From a bacterium (GTDB taxonomy: Bacteria; Sysuimicrobiota; Sysuimicrobiia; Sysuimicrobiales; Humicultoraceae), in contig JBGPNN010000003.1 of assembly GCA_041487495.1 (NCBI GenBank), forward strand, positions 1-38,130: a DNA stretch of 38,130 nucleotides, in the 5' to 3' direction. Positions 7,244 to 15,303 of the stretch are shown here, piece after piece; within the stretch, counting starts at the first letter, position 1; the number at the start of each line of letters is the position of its first letter. The translations under genes and the position numbers were made by a program. The notes beneath the pieces are model-generated. The model did not search any database. It was not told the origin of the DNA and worked only from the letters and a program-made list of their open reading frames with translations.

Positions 7244-7936
7244 ATGGCTATGGTGCGGTGGCTCGCGGGAGTCGCCGCGTTTCTTGTCGCAGGGAGCGTC
7301 GTCGCCGTGTTGCCGACGGCGGCGGGCCCTTCCACGCTTACGCTGTTTCCTACGCGAGGATGCCGGTGGGACAAGATCCCGACGGTTACGATTGCGGGCT
7401 CCGAAACCGACCCGCGGGTCCCCCTGGTCCACGACGCCATTGCGTTTTGGAATCGTCTGCTGGAGGATATCGGTACACCATTTCGGATCGGCGCGGCCGC
7501 GGTAACCCAGCAGACGGTCGCGAACGACTACCTCATCGGGGTGAGCGAAGGCATCGTTGGCGGGGGCAGCCAGCCGAACTTCCCCGAGGAGATCAAGCAA
7601 ATGAGCGGAGACCTGATCGTGGCGCTGTCGTCTGCCGACTTGATTTCGTTCTCGACGTGCCCGTGGCCAGGACAGCGTGTGCTGGTGGGCATCAGGTACC
7701 ATCGGCTGCCGCCGCTTACGCTTCCGAACGTTCCGCGCAACGTCATCGCTCATGAGCTCGGTCACGCGATCGGCCTAGGGCACAATAACGATCCAACCAA
7801 GCTGATGTGCGGGCGGCCGGCGCCGTGCCGGCCGGCCGCTTTCGCCTCGCCGGCCGATCGGTATTTCCCCGTCGCCGATGAGGAAAAGGCCTATCTCTTG
7901 CGACTCTATCCGAGGAACTGGCAGCCGTCTCGCTGA
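7244..7936 (+). CDS. Secreted matrixin/M10-like zinc metalloprotease
   Basis: N-terminal signal peptide; [11 protein letters not shown] metzincin motif followed by a Met-turn (KLM). Confidence 0.85.
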
Positions 7937-7964
7937 CGGCAAATTGGGCCAACATACGTGCGAG

Positions 7965-9260
7965 GTGAGCGAATTGGCGGGGCCGAAGACGGCGCAGAAT
8001 TCCACAGCACATGATGTGCGTGACTTAAACCTGGCGTCCGAAGGTCTGCGGCGAATCGCCTGGGCCGAGCGCGAGATGCCGGTCCTGCGGCGCATCCGTG
8101 AGCGGTTCACGCGCGAGCAGCCCCTTCGGAACCAACGCATCGCGGCCTGTCTCCACGTCACAACAGAGACCGCGGCGCTCATCCTCACACTGCGGGCCGC
8201 CGGCGCGCAGGTGACGTTGTGTGCCAGCAACCCGCTGTCCACGCAGGACGACGTGGCCGCGGCGCTGGCCGCCGAGTACGGGATTGGCGTCTACGCGATC
8301 CGGGGCGAGGACCGCGACACCTACTACAAGCATATCCACCAGGCCTTGAGCCTGCGGCCGCACGTGACCATGGACGACGGCGCCGATCTGGTGTCGACGG
8401 TCCATTCGGAGCGGACAGAACTGATCGAAGACGTGATCGGTGGCACCGAAGAGACAACCACGGGTGTGATCCGGCTGCGGGCGATGGCACGCGATGGCGC
8501 GCTGCGGTATCCGATCATCGCGGTCAACGACGCGAAGACCAAGCATCTGTTTGACAACCGCTACGGTACCGGGCAGTCGACGCTCGACGGGTTGCTGCGC
8601 GCGACCAATGTCCTGCTGGCGGGCAAGACAATGGTGGTTTGTGGCTACGGGTCGTGCGGGCGCGGCCTGGCGATGCGGGCACGAGGCATGGGCGCGCGGG
8701 TCATCGTGACCGAGGTGTCGCCGCTCCACGCGCTGGAAGCGGTGATGGAGGGCTACCAGGTCCTGCCGATCGGCGAGGCGGCGCGCCTGGGCGACATCTT
8801 CATCACGGTCACCGGGAACCGCGGGGTGATCCGCCGTGAGCACTTCGACGTGATGCACGACGGCGCGATCCTGGCCAACAGCGGGCACTTCAACGTCGAG
8901 ATCGATATCCCGATGCTCGAGACGATGGCCACGAGGCGCCGGAAGGCGCGCGAAAACGTCGAGGAGTTCGTGCTACCCGATGGCCGCCGGATCTACCTGC
9001 TGGCCGAAGGGCGGTTGCTCAACTTGGCGGCGGCCGAGGGGCACCCCGCAGCCGTCATGGACATGTCGTTTGCCAACCAGGCGCTGTCGGTGGCACACAT
9101 CGTGCACTCGGTCGGGCAGATGGAACGGACCGTGTACTCCGTGCCGCAGACGATTGACGAGGCGGTGGCGGTGCTGAAGCTTGAAGCCATGGGCGTCGGG
9201 ATCGACACGCTCACCGAGGAGCAGCGGAAGTACCTGGAGTCCTGGCAAGAAGGGACGTAG
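7965..9260 (+). CDS. ahcY: Adenosylhomocysteinase
   Basis: [40 protein letters not shown] and MDMSFANQ motifs. Start placed at an in-frame GTG (7965) after the upstream gene ends. Confidence 0.95.
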
Positions 9261-9290
9261 CCGGCCGAGCCGCGAGTCCCATAAAGTCTG

Positions 9291-9329
9291 AGAAGACCGG
9301 TCGATGGAATGAGTGTGGACCGGTCTTCT
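9291..9329 (+). repeat. Perfect 12-bp inverted repeat spanning the comF start
   Basis: AGAAGACCGGTC (9291-9302) / GACCGGTCTTCT (9318-9329), 15-nt loop, followed by a T-rich tract. Confidence 0.7.
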
Positions 9330-10101
9330 TGATTTGTTGTTTCCTCCGCGCTGCGCGGGCTGCGGCGCGCGTGGAGCCCTGTTCTGCGACCAGTGCGTGG
9401 GTGGACTGCACTGGATCCGGCCGCCGATCTGCGCGCGGTGCGGCGACCCCTTGCCCGCCTGCGTGGTCAGCCGGCCCCGGGGTGGGCCGGGTGCGCCACG
9501 GGAACCCGCCTGGCTGGACCTGTGCCGGTCGTGCGTTCGCCGGCCTCCGGCATTCGCGCTGGCGCGATCGATTGCCGTCTACGGTGGGTCGCTACGCGAG
9601 GCCATCCACGGCTTCAAGTACCGGGGCAGGCGGCCGCTCGCGGATCCCCTGGGGCGTCTGCTGGCGGCTGCGGCGCCCCCGGAGACCTTGCGGGCCGTGC
9701 GCGCCGTGGTTCCGGTGCCCCTGCACGCCCGGCGGCTTGCCGAACGCGGGTTCAACCAGGCCGCCCTGCTTGCCGAGGCTGTGGCTCGCGCCGCGGCCGT
9801 CCCCTGCCTGCCGGACGCTCTCCGGCGGCTGCGGCAGGAAGTCCCACAGGCAAAACTGGGCGCCGCGGACCGGCACCGCAACGTACGCGGGGCCTTCGCG
9901 CCCGGACGGTCGCAGATCTCCGGGACGGTGCTCCTCATCGACGACGTCTTCTCGACGGGCGCGACCGCTGAGGCCTGCGCCCAAGCGCTTCTGGAAGGGG
10001 GTAGCGGCCGCGTGGTGGTGTTGACGCTGGCCCGGGCGGTCCCTGGGGCGTTGGTCGGGACGGCGCTGGCCAGCCTCCTGAGAGGGACGGGAGAGACATG
10101 A
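9313..10101 (+). CDS. comF: ComF family protein (double zinc ribbon + phosphoribosyltransferase)
   Basis: LFPPRCAGC..CxxC..CxxC..CxxC, VPVPLH..R..ERGFNQA, LLIDDVFSTGAT. Confidence 0.92.
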   Translation: MWTGLLDLLFPPRCAGCGARGALFCDQCVGGLHWIRPPICARCGDPLPACVVSRPRGGPGAPREPAWLDLCRSCVRRPPAFALARSIAVYGGSLREAIHGFKYRGRRPLADPLGRLLAAAAPPETLRAVRAVVPVPLHARRLAERGFNQAALLAEAVARAAAVPCLPDALRRLRQEVPQAKLGAADRHRNVRGAFAPGRSQISGTVLLIDDVFSTGATAEACAQALLEGGSGRVVVLTLARAVPGALVGTALASLLRGTGET

Positions 10102-10835
10102 GCGGTTACAACGCATCGTCCGCAGCGCGGGCACGGGCCGCCCGTGATGGTCTCTCGGCGGCGGGACTCTGGGTCCTGATCGAATTCGCCGTCCGGGATA
10201 TCGCGGGGGAGGGATTGCTGCGTCTGCTCAGGCTCTTTGGGTGGATGAAAGATCCGGGCGACGCGTTCCGGCTCGACGCCGTGATGCTCTGGCCGGCCAT
10301 GTTGATGCTGGCCTTCGTGTTTTATCGGCGCATCGGGCGCGACAGATTGAACCTGCGTGACCTGGGTTATCGGTCCTGGCGATCGTCGATTGTCATTGGT
10401 CTGGCCGCCAGCGTGGTGCAGGTAGGGCTCTACGCGGCAGCGGCGCACATCGACACGGCGCTGTTTGGCGTGAGCACGGTCGAACGATTCCGTGAGGCGG
10501 CACGCCGCGCCGGCGCATGGACGGCAGTCGTCGTCTTGCCTGCAAACGGCGTGCTCGGCCCGGTCATTGAGGAACTTGCCTGGCGAGGCTACATCCAAAC
10601 CCGTCTGATTCAGGGGTGGGGACCGGTCCGCGGTATCGCCGCCGCGTCCTTCCTGTTCGCGCTGAAGCACATCATCGTGGACCGCTCGGCCTTTCGCACC
10701 GCATCCCTTCTCGCTGGAGGACTGGCGAAAGGCGTGGTCGCGTTCTACTGGGGAACGTCGGCCTCAACGGTGATGCATGTGCTCCTCAACTTCCTCACCA
10801 CGGGTTCCTTCTATCTGGAGCTCTTCCACCAGTAG
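10098..10835 (+). CDS. CPBP/Abi family intramembrane glutamic endopeptidase
   Basis: Multiple hydrophobic segments; EELAWRG, FALKH and HxxxN (MHVLLN) motifs. Confidence 0.85.
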   Translation: MSGYNASSAARARAARDGLSAAGLWVLIEFAVRDIAGEGLLRLLRLFGWMKDPGDAFRLDAVMLWPAMLMLAFVFYRRIGRDRLNLRDLGYRSWRSSIVIGLAASVVQVGLYAAAAHIDTALFGVSTVERFREAARRAGAWTAVVVLPANGVLGPVIEELAWRGYIQTRLIQGWGPVRGIAAASFLFALKHIIVDRSAFRTASLLAGGLAKGVVAFYWGTSASTVMHVLLNFLTTGSFYLELFHQ

Positions 10836-10955
10836 TGTCCGGTTTTCGCGCTCACCCCCCCAACTGCTGCACACGGAGGTCGATAGGTAGTGTGAACGCG
10901 GACCGCCGGAGGGACTTCCCCGTGTTGTCCCTCTGAGCACAGGAGGGGATGAGAG

Positions 10956-11351
10956 ATGAAGACGATCGGTACGGTTGTACTCCTCATGTTGGTGGTGGCC
11001 GGTGTGGCCGCCGGAGGGTCGTTCGCGCAGGCGGGGCCCGCGATGAGCGTCGCCCTCGCCCAGTGTCATGCGTCTGAGGGGAGTTCGCGTTGCCGGCCGC
11101 TCACCGAGCGCCTGGCCATGATGCTTGAAGAAGGCGCGGACTTCGCCAACGGCTACGGCAGCGTCGGTGCCAATGAGGTCGGCCAGGCGGCGACGCCCGA
11201 GCATGGTCTCACAGAGCACGTCGGGGCTGTGCTGTACGGGCTCGCGGAACTGGTGGTGCGGGAAGTGTACAACCACTTTCTGCAGGGCGGCGGTCTTCCG
11301 CTGGTGCTCGACACGCCCGCCGACTCACGGTTCTTCGATCCGGCCAGGTAG
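10956..11351 (+). CDS. Secreted small protein; candidate precursor for the adjacent SdpAB-like enzymes
   Basis: SD AGGAGG, Sec-type signal peptide (MKT + hydrophobic stretch + SFA|QA), one Cys pair, position upstream of sdpA/sdpB-like genes. The precursor role is inferred from context. Confidence 0.7.
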   Translation: MKTIGTVVLLMLVVAGVAAGGSFAQAGPAMSVALAQCHASEGSSRCRPLTERLAMMLEEGADFANGYGSVGANEVGQAATPEHGLTEHVGAVLYGLAELVVREVYNHFLQGGGLPLVLDTPADSRFFDPAR

Positions 11352-11360
11352 CGGCAGGCT

Positions 11361-11391
11361 GGGGGAGGGGAGGAGCGTCATCCCCTCCCCC
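11361..11391 (+). terminator. Strong hairpin (mRNA stabiliser or leaky terminator) after the precursor gene
   Basis: GGGGGAGGGGA / TCCCCTCCCCC, perfect 11-bp stem with a 9-nt loop and no long U tract. Confidence 0.65.
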
Positions 11392-11410
11392 GTTCCTGGG
11401 GAGGAAGACC

Positions 11411-12043
11411 ATGCTACGGGTCACCGTGTTCTGGGCCATCTCGGGGCTGATAGGTATGGCGGCCGCGGTCTACATCGCGGATACCGTCCTGTACCTCACG
11501 CCTCCGAATCCGCTGAAGGCGGACCTTGTCCCGGCGATCAACCGCCTCATGTACCCCTTGTTCGCTCAGAACTGGCACCTCTTCGCACCCAACCCGGTCC
11601 GGACAAACTTCGTCGTGACGGCCCGGTGCCGGACCAGAGGAATCATCTCCCCGTGGCTGGATCTCACGCAACCCATGCTGGCCCTACATCACCGGCATCG
11701 GAACTCGCCGGTTGGCCGCGTGCTGCGGGTGCGACAAAATGCCGCCCGCATGGCCCTCGGGTCGACGTTTGACGAGTGGCGTGAACTCGCCTGTCGGCGT
11801 GATCCCCACCAACTGATGTGTCGACCCGGTCGGGCCGCGGAGCGGGCTCAGGAAATCGGGATGTATCTCCTCGGCAGGATTGCCACGTCGGCGTGCAACG
11901 AGGTCTCCGAAACCAGGGGTGCGGAGGCCATACAGGTTCGCATCCTCATCCATCAGCCGCCGTTCTGGTCCCGCCGACATCTTTCGGATCATGAAGGTGT
12001 CACCCGGTACGTGGTGCTGCCGTGGGTCCCCGTCGAGCGATGA
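11411..12043 (+). CDS. SdpA-like / DUF5819 family protein
   Basis: N-terminal TM segment, signature PLFAQNWHLFAPNP, four Cys; SD GAGGA. Confidence 0.8.
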   Translation: MLRVTVFWAISGLIGMAAAVYIADTVLYLTPPNPLKADLVPAINRLMYPLFAQNWHLFAPNPVRTNFVVTARCRTRGIISPWLDLTQPMLALHHRHRNSPVGRVLRVRQNAARMALGSTFDEWRELACRRDPHQLMCRPGRAAERAQEIGMYLLGRIATSACNEVSETRGAEAIQVRILIHQPPFWSRRHLSDHEGVTRYVVLPWVPVER

Positions 12044-13335
12044 TGGGGCGGCTCGCGGACTGGCTGTCCCAGGAACACTGGCTGGTCGGCGCGAGCCTCA
12101 TGCGCGTGTCGTTAGGGGCGTGGGCCGTCTACTTCTACGCCCTGCACTTCCCGGTCCGGAGGGTGCTGTGGGGCCCGGAGGGCGTATGGTCCTACGAGCG
12201 GTTCGCCGCAACCATGCCGTTGCTCAATATCTGGCAGCTGGGCCGCTCGCCGTGGTCTTTTGAGGTGGTCTACGCAGCCGCCATTCTTATCGCCGTGGGC
12301 TTCACTCTGGGGTGGGCGCCGCGTGTGACCGGCGCCCTGCACTGGCTGATGATCTGGTCGGTGCAGGAGCGCAACCCGTTCATCACCGACGGTGGCGACA
12401 ACATCATGCGAATCGTGCTGCTGTTCCTGGTCCTGGTGAACACCGGCGAATACTTCTCGGTTGGCGCGTTGCGGGCGAAGACACGTGGATCCCTCCTTTC
12501 GATCCGAGAGATTCTCCGGCCGGCGCGTGCGGCGGTCCACAACGTCGGCGTGCTGCTGATCGTGGCGCAGCTTGGGCTGCTCTACATGAGCACCGGGCTG
12601 TATAAAGCGATGGGGGAACTGTGGCAGACTGGTACCGCACTGTACTACATCCTGCGGGTCGACGAGTTCTCGTGGCCCGGTGTGGCCGAGCATATCTACC
12701 GGAACTCGTACTTGGTTGTCCTTGGGACGTACGGGACCGTGCTGTTTGAAGTCTCGTTCTTGCCAACCCTCTTCAATCGATGGACCAGGTATGCGACGAT
12801 CGGATCGGGGATAGCGCTCCATACGGGGATCGCCCTAGTGATGGGGCTCGTGAGCTTCTCGTGGAGCATGCTGAGCATCTACCCGCTGGTGGTGAGCGAT
12901 GAGGAGTATGGCATGATGGCGGGCTGGTTTCGCCGGCGATTTGGGCTGAAGGCCTTCTATGACGGCTGGTGCCCGGCGTGCACGCGCAGCGCGCGGTGGT
13001 TATCCGCGCTCGATCTTGTGTCGCTCGTGGAGTTCGTCTCATTCCGCGAGCCCGGTGTTATCGAGCGGCACGGACTCGATGCGGGCCGCGCCGCTCGACG
13101 GATCCAAATCATCGATGCGGCGGGCACGGTGCGGGAAGGCATTGACGCGATGATGGCCATCGCGGGGCGGACGGTTGTTCTCTGGCCGCTGATCCCGCTC
13201 TTCTGGGCAGGCCGCCTCGTCGCCGGCCAACGATTCTATGACGCGGTCGCCGCCCGGCGCGTCATCCTTATCCCAGGCGCGTGCGGGGAACACTGCGCTG
13301 TCGGAACGGAGCCAGCAACCAAGCCCCGCGCGTAG
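12040..13335 (+). CDS. SdpB-like HTTM-domain membrane protein with C-terminal DCC1-like thiol-disulfide oxidoreductase domain
   Basis: RNP..DGGDN, QL..LY..TGLYK..G..W..GTALYY and H.GIA..MGL..FS HTTM motifs; C-terminal FYDGWCPAC and CGEHC. ATGA overlap with the sdpA-like gene. Confidence 0.85.
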   Translation: MMGRLADWLSQEHWLVGASLMRVSLGAWAVYFYALHFPVRRVLWGPEGVWSYERFAATMPLLNIWQLGRSPWSFEVVYAAAILIAVGFTLGWAPRVTGALHWLMIWSVQERNPFITDGGDNIMRIVLLFLVLVNTGEYFSVGALRAKTRGSLLSIREILRPARAAVHNVGVLLIVAQLGLLYMSTGLYKAMGELWQTGTALYYILRVDEFSWPGVAEHIYRNSYLVVLGTYGTVLFEVSFLPTLFNRWTRYATIGSGIALHTGIALVMGLVSFSWSMLSIYPLVVSDEEYGMMAGWFRRRFGLKAFYDGWCPACTRSARWLSALDLVSLVEFVSFREPGVIERHGLDAGRAARRIQIIDAAGTVREGIDAMMAIAGRTVVLWPLIPLFWAGRLVAGQRFYDAVAARRVILIPGACGEHCAVGTEPATKPRA

Positions 13336-13347
13336 AAGGCATTCCCG

Positions 13348-14295
13348 CTATCGGTGGATCGCCGGCAGCCGGTGGACGGTTGTCAGACCGGACGGTGCCG
13401 CGACAACCGTGGAGGCCGCGTTGACCGCGAGCGCACAGGTCGCCACGTCTCCGTGAATCCCGCCGGCGACCGTCATCTCGATCGGCGGCTCGCCGTCGAT
13501 CGTCACGATATCGCGCGGATTTGACGCGCCCACAGCCATCGTGAGGTCTAGTGTGACGATCGCCCGACCCTTGCTGCGGGCGGTGGCGACCTGATGCAGG
13601 CCCTTCACGGTTGTCCCGTCCATGACCGGCTCGATCTGCTCGTCGATGGTCTCCGGTGCCCAGCCAAGCGCATCCGCGATCATCGCGATGGATTCCTTGA
13701 GCCCCACGTGTCCGATCCGGCCGTCCGCCACGCCCAGCTCGAAAGTGCGGCGGTCCAGGCCGGCGCCGACCTTTCGCTGGAGTGGCACCCGGCGGAGCCC
13801 GGCGTCGACGACGCGGGTCACCTGGACGGCGTGGATCGTCCGGCACGGTGCGGTCAGGACGATCGGCAGCAGATCCATCACGTAGCCTGGATTGACGCCT
13901 AGTCCCACCACCGTCACACCCTTGGCTTTTGCCGCTTCGTCGATCTGGCGCGCCTCGTCGGGGTGGTGGTTCCACGGGAACGCAAGTTCCTCGCACGTCG
14001 AGATGATGTTGGCGCCCGCCTCGATGATTCCCAACAGTTGCGGGAGGACACGGGTGAGCTGTGATTGGGTCGTGTGGAACACGACCCGGGGGGCCCCCGC
14101 AAGCGCGGCGGCGACGTCCGTGGACACCCGAACCCCAAGGGGATCGCGGCCCAGCAGTGTCCCCAGGTCCTTGCCGGTCTTCTCGGGGTCGATGTCGACG
14201 GCGCCGACGATTCGGTATCCTCGTTCCAGGGCAACGCCGGCGATCCCCAGCCCGATGGGGCCCAGCCCGTAGTGAGCGGCGGTCATCGCAGTCAT
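13348..14295 (-). CDS. NAD(P)-dependent amine dehydrogenase, 2,4-diaminopentanoate dehydrogenase (Ord)-like / DapB-like
   Basis: YGLGPIG Rossmann motif, STCEELAFP, GVNPGYVMD, GHVGLKES, GDVAT. Start moved to ATG 14295 because the longer ORF overlaps arcC. Confidence 0.8.
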   Translation of the reverse strand: MTAMTAAHYGLGPIGLGIAGVALERGYRIVGAVDIDPEKTGKDLGTLLGRDPLGVRVSTDVAAALAGAPRVVFHTTQSQLTRVLPQLLGIIEAGANIISTCEELAFPWNHHPDEARQIDEAAKAKGVTVVGLGVNPGYVMDLLPIVLTAPCRTIHAVQVTRVVDAGLRRVPLQRKVGAGLDRRTFELGVADGRIGHVGLKESIAMIADALGWAPETIDEQIEPVMDGTTVKGLHQVATARSKGRAIVTLDLTMAVGASNPRDIVTIDGEPPIEMTVAGGIHGDVATCALAVNAASTVVAAPSGLTTVHRLPAIHR

Positions 14296-14361
14296 GATGC
14301 TGAGTCTAGCAGAGGGGTCTTGGCAGGCCAAGCGGCAGGGCTCGCCGAAACTCCTCCGTGC

Positions 14362-15303
14362 ATGTGCTCCCTCGCCGTCGTTGCCATCGGGGGTAACTCG
14401 CTGGTCCGCGGGCATGACGCATCTGTTGAAGCCGCCCGCGCGGCGCTGGCGGAGACAGCCGAGCATCTGGCCGATATGGTCCGCGCGGGATGGCGGGTGG
14501 CGATCAGCCACGGCAACGGCCCCCAGGTTGGGTTTGGATTGCTGCGATCGGAGGCCGGCGCGCAGGTGGCGCCGCGGCAACCGCTTGACGTCCTCGGCGC
14601 CGAGACCCAGGGCTCGATTGGCTATCTGTTGCAGCAGGCGCTGGGGGCTGCGATGGCCCAGAGGGGGATCACGCGCCCCGTCGTGACGATTGTGACGCAG
14701 GTCGTCGTGGATCCTGACGATTTCGCCTTTACGCGCCCGACCAAGCCGGTCGGTCCGTTCTACGAGCGGGCCGACGCCGAAGCGCGAATGCGCGAGGAGC
14801 ACTGGACGATGGTGGAGGACGCGGGCCGCGGTTGGCGGCGCGTGGTCCCGTCGCCGGAGCCGCTGGAGATCGTCGAAACCCCGGTGATCCGGTCGCTTGT
14901 CGACGAGGGCGTGGTGGTCATCGCGGCGGGAGGCGGAGGCATTCCTGTGGTCCGCCGCGAAGCCCGGTATGAAGGCGTCGAGGCCGTTATCGACAAGGAT
15001 CTCGCGTCCGCCTTGTTGGCGCGCGACCTGCGGGCCAGCGTGATGGTGGCGTCGACGGCCGTCGAGCGCGTGGCTTTGGATTATGGGACGCCGCGGGAAC
15101 GCCCGATCTCAGTCATGTCGGTCGACGAGGCGCGCCGCTACCTGGGCGATGGGCAATTCCCGCCGGGCAGCATGGGGCCAAAGATCACCGCGGCCATTCG
15201 CTTCCTCGAGGCGGGCGGGGAGACGGTCATCATTACGACGCCGCCGCTGATTGGTGCGGCGTTAGAGGGTCAGGCCGGCACGCGGATTGTCGCGAACAGG
15301 TGA
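14362..15303 (+). CDS. arcC: Carbamate kinase
   Basis: VAIGGNSL, SHGNGPQVG, PTKPVGPFY, GWRRVVPSP, EAVIDKD, GSMGPK. Confidence 0.95.
   Translation: MCSLAVVAIGGNSLVRGHDASVEAARAALAETAEHLADMVRAGWRVAISHGNGPQVGFGLLRSEAGAQVAPRQPLDVLGAETQGSIGYLLQQALGAAMAQRGITRPVVTIVTQVVVDPDDFAFTRPTKPVGPFYERADAEARMREEHWTMVEDAGRGWRRVVPSPEPLEIVETPVIRSLVDEGVVVIAAGGGGIPVVRREARYEGVEAVIDKDLASALLARDLRASVMVASTAVERVALDYGTPRERPISVMSVDEARRYLGDGQFPPGSMGPKITAAIRFLEAGGETVIITTPPLIGAALEGQAGTRIVANR

Follow-up and report, generated by a model that had tools for sequence, protein, structure and literature searches.

A conserved bacterial cassette that pairs a small putative peptide precursor with carboxylase-like DUF5819 and HTTM-DCC1 proteins

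Organization of the locus

The window analysed here is a 38,130-nucleotide stretch of bacterial DNA. Between positions 10098 and 13335 it contains, all on the + strand, a CPBP gene, an ORF encoding 131 aa, a hairpin, a DUF5819 gene and an HTTM-DCC1 gene. A first-pass annotation had reported these five co-oriented features, and all of them were found at these positions and on this strand. The features and the evidence for each are as follows.

9313-10101, +: comF/gntX-type gene (NF008616 E 1.3e-29 and TIGR00201 E 1.3e-25, both under cut-off; PF18912 E 3.7e-11)
10098-10835, +: gene for a CPBP (Rce1-like) glutamic intramembrane protease, 245 aa (PF02517 E 6.4e-12)
10941-10949, +: Shine-Dalgarno sequence of the small gene, AGGAGGGGA, read directly, 7 nt before the small ORF
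10956-11351, +: small putative precursor gene, 131 aa (A1 alignment of homologues; hydrophobic N-terminus)
11334-11348, +: codons of the tail Phe-Asp-Pro-Ala-Arg (A1 alignment; enrichment of FD endings)
11361-11391, +: stem-loop GGGGGAGGGGA ... TCCCCTCCCCC, with an 11-bp G/C stem (folding)
11411-12043, +: DUF5819 gene, 210 aa (PF19136 E 7.4e-25)
11561-11596, +: DUF5819 motif FAQNWHLFAPNP, conserved in the A5 alignment
12022-13335, +: HTTM-DCC1 gene (PF05090 E 2.4e-7; PF04134 E 7.2e-12)
12604-12606, +: Lys195 codon of HTTM, invariant in the A2 alignment
12970-12981, +: CPAC (CxxC) of the DCC1-like domain, read in the sequence

The stop codon of comF and the start codon of the CPBP gene share an ATGA overlap, and comF is the conserved 5' neighbor of the cassette in relatives. 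The stop codon of the DUF5819 gene overlaps an ATG at 12040, leaving the start of HTTM ambiguous (GTG 12022, ATG 12040 or ATG 12043).

The same arrangement was found again at 17 loci in 16 related genomes, with the order small ORF, DUF5819, HTTM in 17/17. This recurrence is far beyond chance and supports the earlier description of the locus as a secreted-peptide maturation cassette. Within family f1, to which the window belongs, synteny extends over the whole block, comF included, and part of the shared gene order could reflect descent instead of selection. That the adjacency is inherited synteny with no functional link is already disfavored and seems to us highly improbable, because the small ORF and DUF5819 are jointly present or absent within genera (4/6 in genus g6 and 0/8 in genus g4 for both), because CPBP is repositioned yet kept, and because analogous ORFs with a Phe-Asp (FD) tail lie beside the enzyme pair in other phyla.

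The small ORF is a conserved gene

The 131-aa product has a hydrophobic N-terminus (residues 6-24) and matched no family in Pfam or NCBIfam. It is comprised of a predicted signal peptide (1-24), Cys37 and Cys46, an acidic EEG (58-60), a predicted amphipathic helix (82-108) and Phe127-Asp128, which are invariant and followed by Pro-Ala-Arg. Alignment of 18 homologues (A1) showed that M1, A18, G21, S22, A24, C37, C46, F127 and D128 are invariant, and GGAGG-type sites precede the homologous small ORFs. A profile search with A1 matched 69 cluster representatives among 1.84 billion; among the full-length matches, 50/53 end in FD plus 1-4 residues and 50/53 contain the Cys pair.

The A1 profile matched 17/33 genomes of family f1 in addition to the window's own, and 0/60 genomes in other families of the order. 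PF19136 matched 18/33 and the window's own; in the one extra genome (G002, 59% complete) DUF5819 sits 17 nt from a contig end. Within the family, all genomes with DUF5819 thus have the small ORF, contig ends permitting, and all genomes without DUF5819 lack it. The ORF is a genuine gene. The first-pass annotation had staked its reading on the conservation of this ORF beside the enzyme pair; it is kept in relatives, and analogous ORFs occur in other phyla.

The AF2 model of the small protein contains helices at 2-23 and 82-108, with low confidence elsewhere. A protein predicted to be mostly disordered with one long helix is as expected for a precursor and not for an enzyme. Strict co-occurrence fits an accessory subunit or regulator of DUF5819/HTTM as well as it fits a substrate, and the true substrate could then be encoded elsewhere or be something other than a protein. 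A carboxylase relative from Leptospira, which epoxidizes vitamin K and is not known to carboxylate proteins, lends this idea some support. We nonetheless consider it quite unlikely because the small protein diverges fast (26-46% identity within the same lineage, versus 45-55% for DUF5819 and 53-69% for HTTM), varies from 1 to 4 copies, is predicted to be mostly disordered, and is followed by a stem-loop that implies expression above that of the enzymes.

A stem-loop follows the small gene

Folding of a 71-nt segment containing the hairpin gave -36.1 kcal/mol (z -1.8 versus dinucleotide shuffles), and the 59-nt spacer that holds it gave z -2.3 versus mononucleotide shuffles. The hairpin has no T-run, and a terminator scan gave no call there. 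A stem of 9-17 uninterrupted pairs occurs in the same place in 15/15 related loci with unrelated sequences, and the spacer has z < -2 in 12/15 of these and in 26/32 loci from other phyla. We propose that the stem-loop is a partial terminator or transcript stabilizer that raises the precursor-to-enzyme ratio.

The DUF5819 and HTTM-DCC1 proteins resemble a carboxylase system

DUF5819, present in one copy in the genome, is predicted to have an N-terminal membrane helix and a globular domain (AF2 pLDDT 90.8). Residues Q53, W55, F58, P60 and P62 are invariant among the 51 sequences of A5. The second protein has an HTTM domain at about residues 61-292 (PF05090, 31 bits versus a cut-off of 27.7) and a DCC1-like thiol-disulfide oxidoreductase domain at 312-414. 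The first-pass annotation mentions neither the fusion to DCC1 at the C-terminus nor a relationship to vitamin K-dependent carboxylases.

Residues K195, W201, H267 and F279 of HTTM are invariant in A2. The A2 profile matches human GGCX chains (E 9.3e-6), with K195 aligned on the last residue of GVKK, numbered Lys218 by the offset of the same alignment table, and W201 on Trp223. Lys218 of GGCX is described in the passages cited as the general base, stacking on Trp223 (PMC12647623). According to passages of a preprint, DUF5819 and HTTM-DCC1 are predicted to form a GGCX-like complex in which Lys189, Trp195 and Phe273 are conserved, spaced exactly as K195, W201 and F279 are here; the same passages note that this predicted bacterial complex seems to have a blocked substrate channel and probably differs from GGCX in function (10.64898/2026.08.19.745780). 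The prediction there that DUF5819 replaces the lumenal clamp was not reproduced by our fold searches.

PF04134 (DCC1) is carried by 105/112 HTTM homologues, and four loci with an unfused HTTM have DCC1 as a gene of its own, 1.1-1.4 kb downstream of the HTTM gene. Beside fused enzymes, 24/25 FD proteins have no Cys after residue 25. DCC1 is therefore tied to HTTM and not to precursor cysteines. The genome contains menA (196 bits versus a cut-off of 102), making a quinone cofactor plausible, and a separate VKOR homologue, so that DCC1 is not needed as the sole quinone reductase.

FD-tail proteins lie beside enzyme pairs in other phyla

The comparison across phyla covered 80 HTTM loci, drawn from about seven phyla. 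DUF5819 is directly 5' of HTTM in 76/80. An automatic rule found an FD-tail ORF at 64/80 and inspection added 6 more. One of the 64 automatic loci, L141, looks spurious. At least 69 of the 80 loci have 1-4 small ORFs that encode a signal peptide and end 0-4 residues past Phe-Asp, and a stem-loop usually comes after them; the maximum of four tandem copies occurs in L095 and L097. ORFs ending in FD plus 0-4 residues make up 78/425 of those just 5' of enzyme pairs versus 27/3397 in the background. Because the members of alignment A4 were picked by their FD ending, the invariance of FD within A4 is circular. No FD-tail ORF was present at five loci with intact upstream DNA (L088, L107, L112, L139 and L146) or in the stretches inspected of four DUF5819 genomes of family f4.

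None of nine FD-tail small proteins (0/9) matched Pfam or NCBIfam models. When the A1 family was compared with the FD-tail proteins of other phyla using hhalign, only the last 21 columns aligned (probability 25%). We therefore treat these ORFs as analogous to the A1 family, with sequence homology not established.

CPBP and other fourth genes

The catalytic motifs of CPBP are EELAWR (10569-10586), FALKH (10656-10670) and HVLLN (10776-10790), and EExxxR, FxxxH and HxxxN are kept in 13 relatives. CPBP is 5' of the small gene in 7 loci and the window and 3' of HTTM in 5; contig ends cut off the other 6 of the 18 loci. CPBP switches sides yet stays in the cassette. CPBP/Abi proteins of bacteriocin loci function in immunity or processing, and Mrt-type proteases cleave C-terminal signals. 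CPBP here has the Pfam family and catalytic motifs in common with both, although no NCBIfam equivalog model reaches its cut-off. We propose that it is a tail or propeptide protease or an immunity protein. The fourth gene in other phyla carries PF01841 in 23 loci, and among 87 neighbors scanned PF00144 occurs in 8 and PF01551 in 5.

The weak matches of CPBP to sorting proteases (MrtS E 2.4e-10, MrtP E 6.4e-7, both far under cut-offs), together with the fact that PF01841, PF00144 and PF01551 proteins often act on the cell wall, could suggest that the small proteins are cell-envelope proteins. Phe-Asp would then be a sorting signal cut by a peptidase (CPBP, elsewhere a transglutaminase-like, beta-lactamase-family or M23 protein), with DUF5819/HTTM attaching the protein to an envelope component. 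Known C-terminal sorting signals consist of a motif followed by a transmembrane helix and a basic cluster, and the signal of Mrt-type systems is tripartite. By contrast, the tail here is 4-6 residues, lacks both helix and basic cluster, and places FD among the last 5 residues. Peptide precursors typically have diverging tandem copies and a stem-loop after the gene, and each genome has only one substrate-like gene family. Envelope sorting is thus an improbable explanation.

The cassette is distantly related to SdpABC/YitPOM

The first-pass annotation likened the cassette to the SdpABC/YitPOM family, which in Bacillus subtilis matures cannibalism and biofilm toxins, while noting that the precursor is unlike SdpC. 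The second point holds, as the SdpC model (TIGR04032) has no match in the genome. The evidence speaks against family membership: the SdpA model (TIGR04034) also has no match in the genome, although the B. subtilis control is matched by both models, SdpB reaches 69.6 bits with its model versus a cut-off of 178.4, PF19136 has no match in B. subtilis, and the precursor is on the other side of the pair, upstream here and downstream in the sole YitPOM-like operon inspected (L151).

There are likenesses to this family. The YitO-like protein of L151 is a clear homologue of HTTM (hhalign probability 99%, E 1.9e-18, 274 columns). In both systems a membrane protein with an HTTM domain is accompanied by a small partner bearing a Q-x-W-x-x-F...P motif, and the precursor carries a signal peptide, is hydrophobic or amphipathic toward its C-terminus and ends in an acidic tail (...LVDELN in the YitM-like protein of L151). 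DUF5819 aligns with the YitP-like protein over a 28-column motif only (probability 40%). Judging from these alignments, the relation to Sdp is distant. Further differences are the Phe-Asp ending, the fusion of HTTM to DCC1 and the presence of a CPBP protease. In B. spizizenii an FD-type operon (L115) coexists with a YitPOM-like one (L151), indicating that these are parallel systems.

Both partners of SdpABC/YitPOM are required for precursor processing, and the passages cited describe SDP, the SdpAB product, in terms of processing and without carboxylation, so HTTM may serve processing rather than carboxylation (PMC6818787). An ordinary cannibalism toxin system, in which the SdpA and SdpB homologues do no redox chemistry and only cut a hydrophobic peptide out of its pro-toxin while CPBP provides Abi-type immunity, is unlikely in our view given the model scores, the short DUF5819 alignment and the upstream precursor. 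In addition, the DCC1 fusion and the conserved Lys and Trp argue for redox catalysis.

A candidate substrate for a carboxylase-like complex

The explanation we favor, with a probability of about 0.6, is that the small protein is the precursor of a ribosomal peptide, that its C-terminal tail serves for recognition, and that a carboxylase-like, menaquinone-dependent complex of DUF5819 and HTTM matures it outside the cytoplasm, with DCC1 recycling the cofactor and CPBP acting as tail protease or immunity protein. We infer that the 131-aa product is exported via its signal peptide and cleaved after Ala24. Outside the cytoplasmic membrane, DUF5819 and the HTTM domain would act as a complex that recognizes the invariant ...Phe-Asp tail and modifies the precursor with menaquinol and O2, most likely by Asp/Glu carboxylation at the invariant Asp128 or the conserved Glu58-Glu59; it may also license cleavage of the precursor. 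The CxxC domain of DCC1 would return the used quinone to its reduced form, the role that VKOR has for GGCX. CPBP would trim the 2-4 residues past Phe-Asp or another piece of the propeptide, or else shield the producer, and the stem-loop would keep precursor mRNA above enzyme mRNA. By analogy with SDP, the amphipathic helix region (about 82-108) is probably what is released, acting as a membrane-active peptide.

We know of no Gla-type substrate in bacteria. The proposed system resembles animal GGCX in having the general-base Lys and stacking Trp in HTTM, exported substrates recognized through a separate peptide element, and a thiol-based quinone reductase, VKOR in animals and, we propose, DCC1 here. 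It differs in that the profile match reaches no better than E about 1e-5, the element recognized would lie at the C-terminus, and the lumenal clamp would, according to the preprint's prediction, be replaced by a separate DUF5819 protein (10.64898/2026.08.19.745780). In passages including those of the same preprint, MloH of malonomycin biosynthesis, a bacterial HTTM relative, carboxylates an aspartyl residue (10.64898/2026.08.19.745780), making the invariant tail Asp a credible target. MloH has HTTM fused to a DUF5819-like region in one protein and acts on a PKS-NRPS intermediate, whereas here there are two separate proteins and the proposed substrate is a ribosomal peptide.

The FD-tail small protein is a candidate natural substrate for the bacterial carboxylase-like enzyme pairs beside which it is encoded.

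Gene content of the cassette

The cassette at 10098-13335 on the forward strand encodes, with a probability that we place at about 0.6, an exported ribosomal peptide precursor together with its maturases. The first-pass annotation had described four co-oriented ORFs between comF and a convergent gene, and both their positions and their shared orientation proved to be exact:

9313-10101, comF, the upstream flank, overlapping the CPBP gene by ATGA
10098-10835, + strand, CPBP/Rce1-like protease (PF02517, E 6.4e-12)
10956-11351, + strand, small ORF of 131 aa, the proposed precursor, with a strong Shine-Dalgarno site and no Pfam or NCBIfam family
11361-11391, hairpin with an 11-bp G/C stem and no T-run
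11411-12043, + strand, DUF5819 gene (PF19136, E 7.4e-25)
12022-13335, + strand, HTTM-DCC1 gene, 437 aa (PF05090 and PF04134), with a start at GTG 12022, ATG 12040 or ATG 12043
13348-14802, - strand, convergent gene, the downstream flank

The stop codon of the DUF5819 gene shares bases with an ATG of the HTTM gene. Scanning 9200-14000 for promoters and terminators gave no promoter-like site. Among the 24 sequencing runs listed with this locus, all of them apparently DNA, there was no RNA run. The source genome is metagenome-assembled (349 contigs, 91.6% complete, 6.8% contaminated) and contains one DUF5819 gene. In public records, close homologues are named Armatimonadota, Candidatus Fervidifonticultor and Candidatus Geohabitans. 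In the genome collection used, the phylum and the order of the organism comprise the same 94 species genomes; thus, its lineage is a small phylum-level group, though public records name members Armatimonadota.

Two genes upstream of the cassette, ahead of a gene for S-adenosylhomocysteine hydrolase (7878-9260), is a 230-aa ORF (7244-7936, + strand) with a hydrophobic N-terminus and a zinc-binding motif; the ORF scores E 6.3e-5 with matrixin PF00413, slightly under the cut-off. It probably encodes a secreted metalloprotease.

A small protein co-inherited with DUF5819 and HTTM

A protein search with the small ORF gave matches in 19 of 61 related genomes, the two weakest of which (loci L019 and L020) were dropped as false after reading. 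By tblastn, DUF5819 and HTTM genes directly follow the small ORF in all 17 remaining loci, from 16 genomes. The first-pass annotation had named a lack of conservation beside the enzyme pair as one observation that would speak against its reading; conservation is what these loci contain. A profile built from 18 homologues of the lineage (A1) matched 17 of the 33 genomes of the organism's family in addition to the window's own, and none of the 60 genomes from the other families of the order. PF19136 matched 18 of the 33 and the window's own. The two are concordant within genera (4 of 6 genomes for both in genus g6, 0 of 8 for both in g4), and the sole discordant genome, G002, is 59% complete and has its DUF5819 at a contig end. 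The family counts take in two genomes flagged as unpublished (G010 and G019), and no claim depends on these two alone. The small ORF is a real gene, co-inherited with DUF5819 and HTTM.

Only 69 proteins among 1.84 billion cluster representatives matched A1 at E <= 1e-3; the family is small and confined to one lineage. Residues M1, A18, G21, S22, A24, C37, C46, F127 and D128 are invariant in A1, and P129 is nearly so. Among the 53 full-length representatives from the profile search, Phe-Asp plus 1-4 residues forms the C-terminus of 50, and a Cys-x(n)-Cys pair is present in 50. Gly21 and Ala24 presumably agree with the -3/-1 rule of signal peptidase I, and the signal peptide would be cleaved after Ala24. 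The interior has an acidic [ED][ED]G motif (Glu58-Glu59-Gly60) followed by a variable Gly/Asp-rich stretch, and the mature part as a whole is acidic (13 Asp/Glu versus 6 Lys/Arg). The AF2 model has a mean pLDDT of 63.7, too low for a fold search; besides the signal helix, its sole confident part is an amphipathic helix at residues 82-108. The best score in an ESM Atlas search, 0.78, was under the useful range. The family appears to be undescribed: searches of open-access papers and preprints found no description of it.

The A1 profile also matched two giant proteins, P0150 (1567 aa) in four separate stretches and P0175 (4032 aa) in six, the best covering profile positions 7-47 and 27-91, respectively. 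The small protein's N-terminal part may recur there as a repeat, or the matches may be of low complexity.

Relationship to SdpABC and to vitamin K-dependent carboxylase

The cassette had been annotated as SdpABC/YitPOM-like with a precursor unlike SdpC, and HMM searches had been proposed. These succeeded for both enzymes, with PF19136 matching the full length (1-169) of the DUF5819 protein at 88.9 bits (gathering score 27.1) and PF05090 matching the HTTM protein at 31 bits (gathering score 27.7), and gave no match to the SdpC family. The SdpA model TIGR04034 (cut-off 53.1 bits) matched neither the DUF5819 protein nor any protein of the genome, and the SdpC model TIGR04032 had no match in the genome; Bacillus subtilis controls were positive for both. 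The SdpB model TIGR04033 scored 69.6 bits (E 3.1e-19) on HTTM, which is related but under the cut-off of 178.4. PF19136 was found in 0 of 14 control genomes, B. subtilis among them. In the YitPOM-like operon of Bacillus spizizenii (L151), the HTTM protein is homologous to the cassette's HTTM family (hhalign probability 99%, E 1.9e-18), whereas the SdpA-like protein has only a Q-x-W-x-x-F...P motif in common with DUF5819 (28 columns, probability 40%). The YitM-like precursor of L151 lies downstream of the enzyme pair and ends in ...LVDELN, unlike that of the cassette, which lies upstream. Thus, the cassette is a distant cousin of SdpABC and not a member: the homology of the HTTM proteins upholds the kinship, the results with the three Sdp models count against membership, and the noted unlikeness to SdpC holds in both profile and gene order.

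The B. spizizenii genome contains two parallel systems. The YitPOM-like one (L151:2664-4737) has the order SdpA-like gene, HTTM and a 194-aa precursor downstream. The other (L115:4900-8128) encodes a 117-aa protein with a Phe-Asp tail, DUF5819, HTTM and a transglutaminase-like membrane protein.

Across 18 diverse HTTM(-DCC1) proteins aligned as A2, residues K195, W201, H267 and F279 are invariant. The A2 profile matched human GGCX chains at E 9.3e-6; GGCX was found by this profile only, and phmmer with the HTTM protein gave 0 matches in the PDB. K195 pairs with Lys218, the second Lys of GVKK (offset from the same table). A study on GGCX describes Lys218 as the general base, stacking on Trp223 (PMC12647623). 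The HTTM protein has the general-base Lys and stacking Trp of this superfamily in K195 and W201. An August 2026 preprint, in its accessible part, presents a predicted GGCX-like complex of DUF5819 with a 447-aa HTTM-DCC1 of Melghirimyces, centred on Lys189, Trp195 and Phe273, which are spaced as K195, W201 and F279 are; that part points to a likeness with MloH, an aspartyl carboxylase, and names no substrate (10.64898/2026.08.19.745780).

The AF2 model of DUF5819 has a pLDDT of 90.8. Foldseek against the PDB returned nothing at E <= 1e-3, and in a wide VIA-align search the best Z was 5.2, for the N-terminal helix only, with GGCX absent from the list; a likeness of DUF5819 to the GGCX clamp domain was not reproduced by these fold searches. 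Control-free predictions of a complex of HTTM-DCC1, DUF5819 and small-protein residues 25-131, with alignments for each, scored 0.25 and 0.29 relative to a mark of 0.32, which speaks neither for nor against the complex. As to cofactor supply, menA is present. A search of the genome (91.6% complete) for MqnA (PF02621) gave no match. Away from the cassette, a separate VKOR homologue is encoded at G000:C154:3431-3790 (L147; PF07884, 86 bits).

The C-terminus of the HTTM protein forms a DCC1-like domain (PF04134, E 7.2e-12, 47 bits versus 27.8) with the DxxCxxC motif as YDGWCPAC and its Cys pair (CPAC) at residues 317-320. The first-pass annotation made no mention of this domain. PF04134 is found in 105 of 112 homologues of the HTTM protein, and where HTTM is unfused, a separate DCC1 gene lies 1.1-1.4 kb downstream of the HTTM gene in four loci. 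Outside the window's lineage, 24 of 25 Phe-Asp-tailed proteins beside fused enzymes have no Cys after residue 25. Thus, the CxxC domain cannot generally serve to oxidise the precursor, and cofactor recycling is favoured.

Phe-Asp-tailed proteins beside DUF5819/HTTM pairs in other phyla

A scan with the HTTM alignment, using one genome per species, confirmed 174 places, and we kept the best 80. These 80 come from Armatimonadota-named MAGs, Bacillota (Brevibacillus, Paenibacillus, Thermoactinomyces, Melghirimyces, Virgibacillus, Bacillus and others), Chloroflexota, Actinomycetota (Streptomyces and others), Sorangium, Acidobacteriota and Eremiobacterota. DUF5819 is immediately 5' of HTTM in 76 of the best 80; in three of the other four, a contig start truncates the locus. 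An automatic rule (same-strand ORF of <= 260 aa, <= 2.5 kb away, C-terminus Phe-Asp plus 0-4 residues) was positive in 64 of these 80 loci; in one of the 64, L141, the ORF looks spurious. We inspected 12 loci by eye, including 11 of the 16 missed by the rule. This added six loci with a Phe-Asp-tailed protein (L069, L071, L094, L121, L131 and L135), and on inspection no such ORF was present in five (L088, L107, L112, L139 and L146). Another five loci missed by the rule are cut by contig ends (L067, L082, L083, L099 and L110). Among mechanical ORFs, the ending occurs in 78 of 425 just upstream of the pairs versus 27 of 3397 elsewhere in the same loci.

The tailed proteins have a signal peptide, a Gly/Ala-rich hydrophobic core and an acidic tail, and as many as four diverging copies stand in tandem (L095 and L097). 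None of eight tested matched a Pfam or NCBIfam family. Outside the window's lineage, the tail is Phe-Asp plus 0-1 residue in 38 of the 39 sequences of alignment A4, which were picked by this ending, and FDLNN in the other (L092). In the window's lineage it is Phe-Asp plus 1-4 residues, with Pro usually first. Sequence comparison does not establish that all these small proteins share an ancestor, because hhalign of A1 with A4 aligned the last 21 columns only (probability 25%). In the sister family f4, no A1-type or Phe-Asp-tailed ORF was found in the stretches inspected beside four DUF5819/HTTM pairs (L059-L062, from genomes G047, G083, G050 and G059). Three of the four DUF5819 matches in f4 are partial, and L061 and L062 instead have, upstream of the pair, a secreted protein of 207-261 aa with a Gly/His-rich end.

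CPBP and the fourth gene

The CPBP protein matches PF02517 and has all three catalytic motifs of CPBP/Rce1-like proteases (EExxxR, FxxxH and HxxxN) intact, conserved in 13 relatives. None of the models for Mrt-type sorting proteases reached its cut-off on this protein, the best being MrtS (40.8 bits versus 130). Across 18 loci of the lineage from public genomes, the CPBP gene is flanked by comF and the small gene in seven, as in the window, and directly downstream of HTTM in five; six have a contig end on the side where it could be. It switches side yet stays in the cassette, which is good evidence for a functional tie. In Candidatus Geohabitans tengchongensis (L080:7300-9205), two CPBP paralogues follow HTTM.

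Among the best 80 of the 174 HTTM places, CPBP is in the cassette in the window's lineage only, and the fourth gene often encodes a putative peptidase, being transglutaminase-like in 23 of these 80 loci. We scanned 87 of 111 downstream mechanical ORFs, leaving out the transglutaminase-like ones, and found eight of the beta-lactamase family and five of M23. This variety may reflect non-orthologous replacement of a processing peptidase. The transglutaminase-core (PF01841) proteins after HTTM, in loci between L084 and L142, are 387-503 aa long and mostly have predicted membrane helices (for example L115:6953-8128, L085:7435-8781 and L088:7444-8802). The same slot holds the beta-lactamase-family protein in eight Streptomyces-type loci and the M23 peptidase in five loci.

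A stem-loop after the proposed precursor gene

The hairpin at 11361-11391 was not called by a terminator scan of 9200-14000, because it has no T-run. All 15 related loci analysed have an uninterrupted stem of 9-17 pairs, unrelated in sequence, 3' of the small gene, a count that leaves out L080 with its unusually long spacer of 324 nt between the small gene and DUF5819; 12 of the 15 have z < -2 relative to 30 mononucleotide shuffles. For other phyla, z is below -2 in 26 of 32 spacers, and many resemble intrinsic terminators.

Proposed maturation of the precursor

The cassette has the features of a ribosomal peptide locus: a small conserved precursor gene beside modifying enzymes, a conserved recognition element, a variable core and a stem-loop after the precursor gene. 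From these gene-level facts we infer export, binding, chemistry, cleavage sites and activity. The precursor would be exported, and its C-terminal Phe-Asp tail would direct it to a carboxylase-like DUF5819/HTTM complex with DCC1 as the putative redox partner. The chemistry there could be a carboxylation, with Asp128 or Glu58/Glu59 as the target, or no more than processing, as happens in Sdp; carboxylation specifically is a tentative proposal. CPBP may be a tail protease or an immunity factor, and the stem-loop may set the stoichiometry of precursor to enzymes. A bolder joint reading, which we consider doubtful, is that Phe-Asp-tailed proteins are the natural substrates of bacterial homologues of vitamin K-dependent carboxylase and are carboxylated at Asp/Glu with menaquinol, that DCC1 is a new, non-VKOR quinone-epoxide reductase, and that a lineage-specific peptidase (CPBP here) trims the tail.

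This system is SdpAB-like and GGCX-like but has an undescribed precursor family. To our knowledge, bacterial homologues of HTTM and vitamin K-dependent carboxylase are widespread and a reaction is known for MloH only; we likewise know of no mechanism for the processing of SdpC by SdpA and SdpB. The partner protein is conserved, easy to recognise and invariant in its Phe-Asp tail; as a concrete candidate substrate, it makes the question testable, and strains of Bacillus, Brevibacillus, Paenibacillus, Streptomyces and Sorangium are culturable carriers for such tests. The HTTM-DCC1 fusion hints at a role for the uncharacterised DCC1/YuxK family. If the joint reading about substrates were true, these proteins would constitute a new class of ribosomal carboxylated peptides in at least seven phyla, and the working of SdpAB would also be explained.
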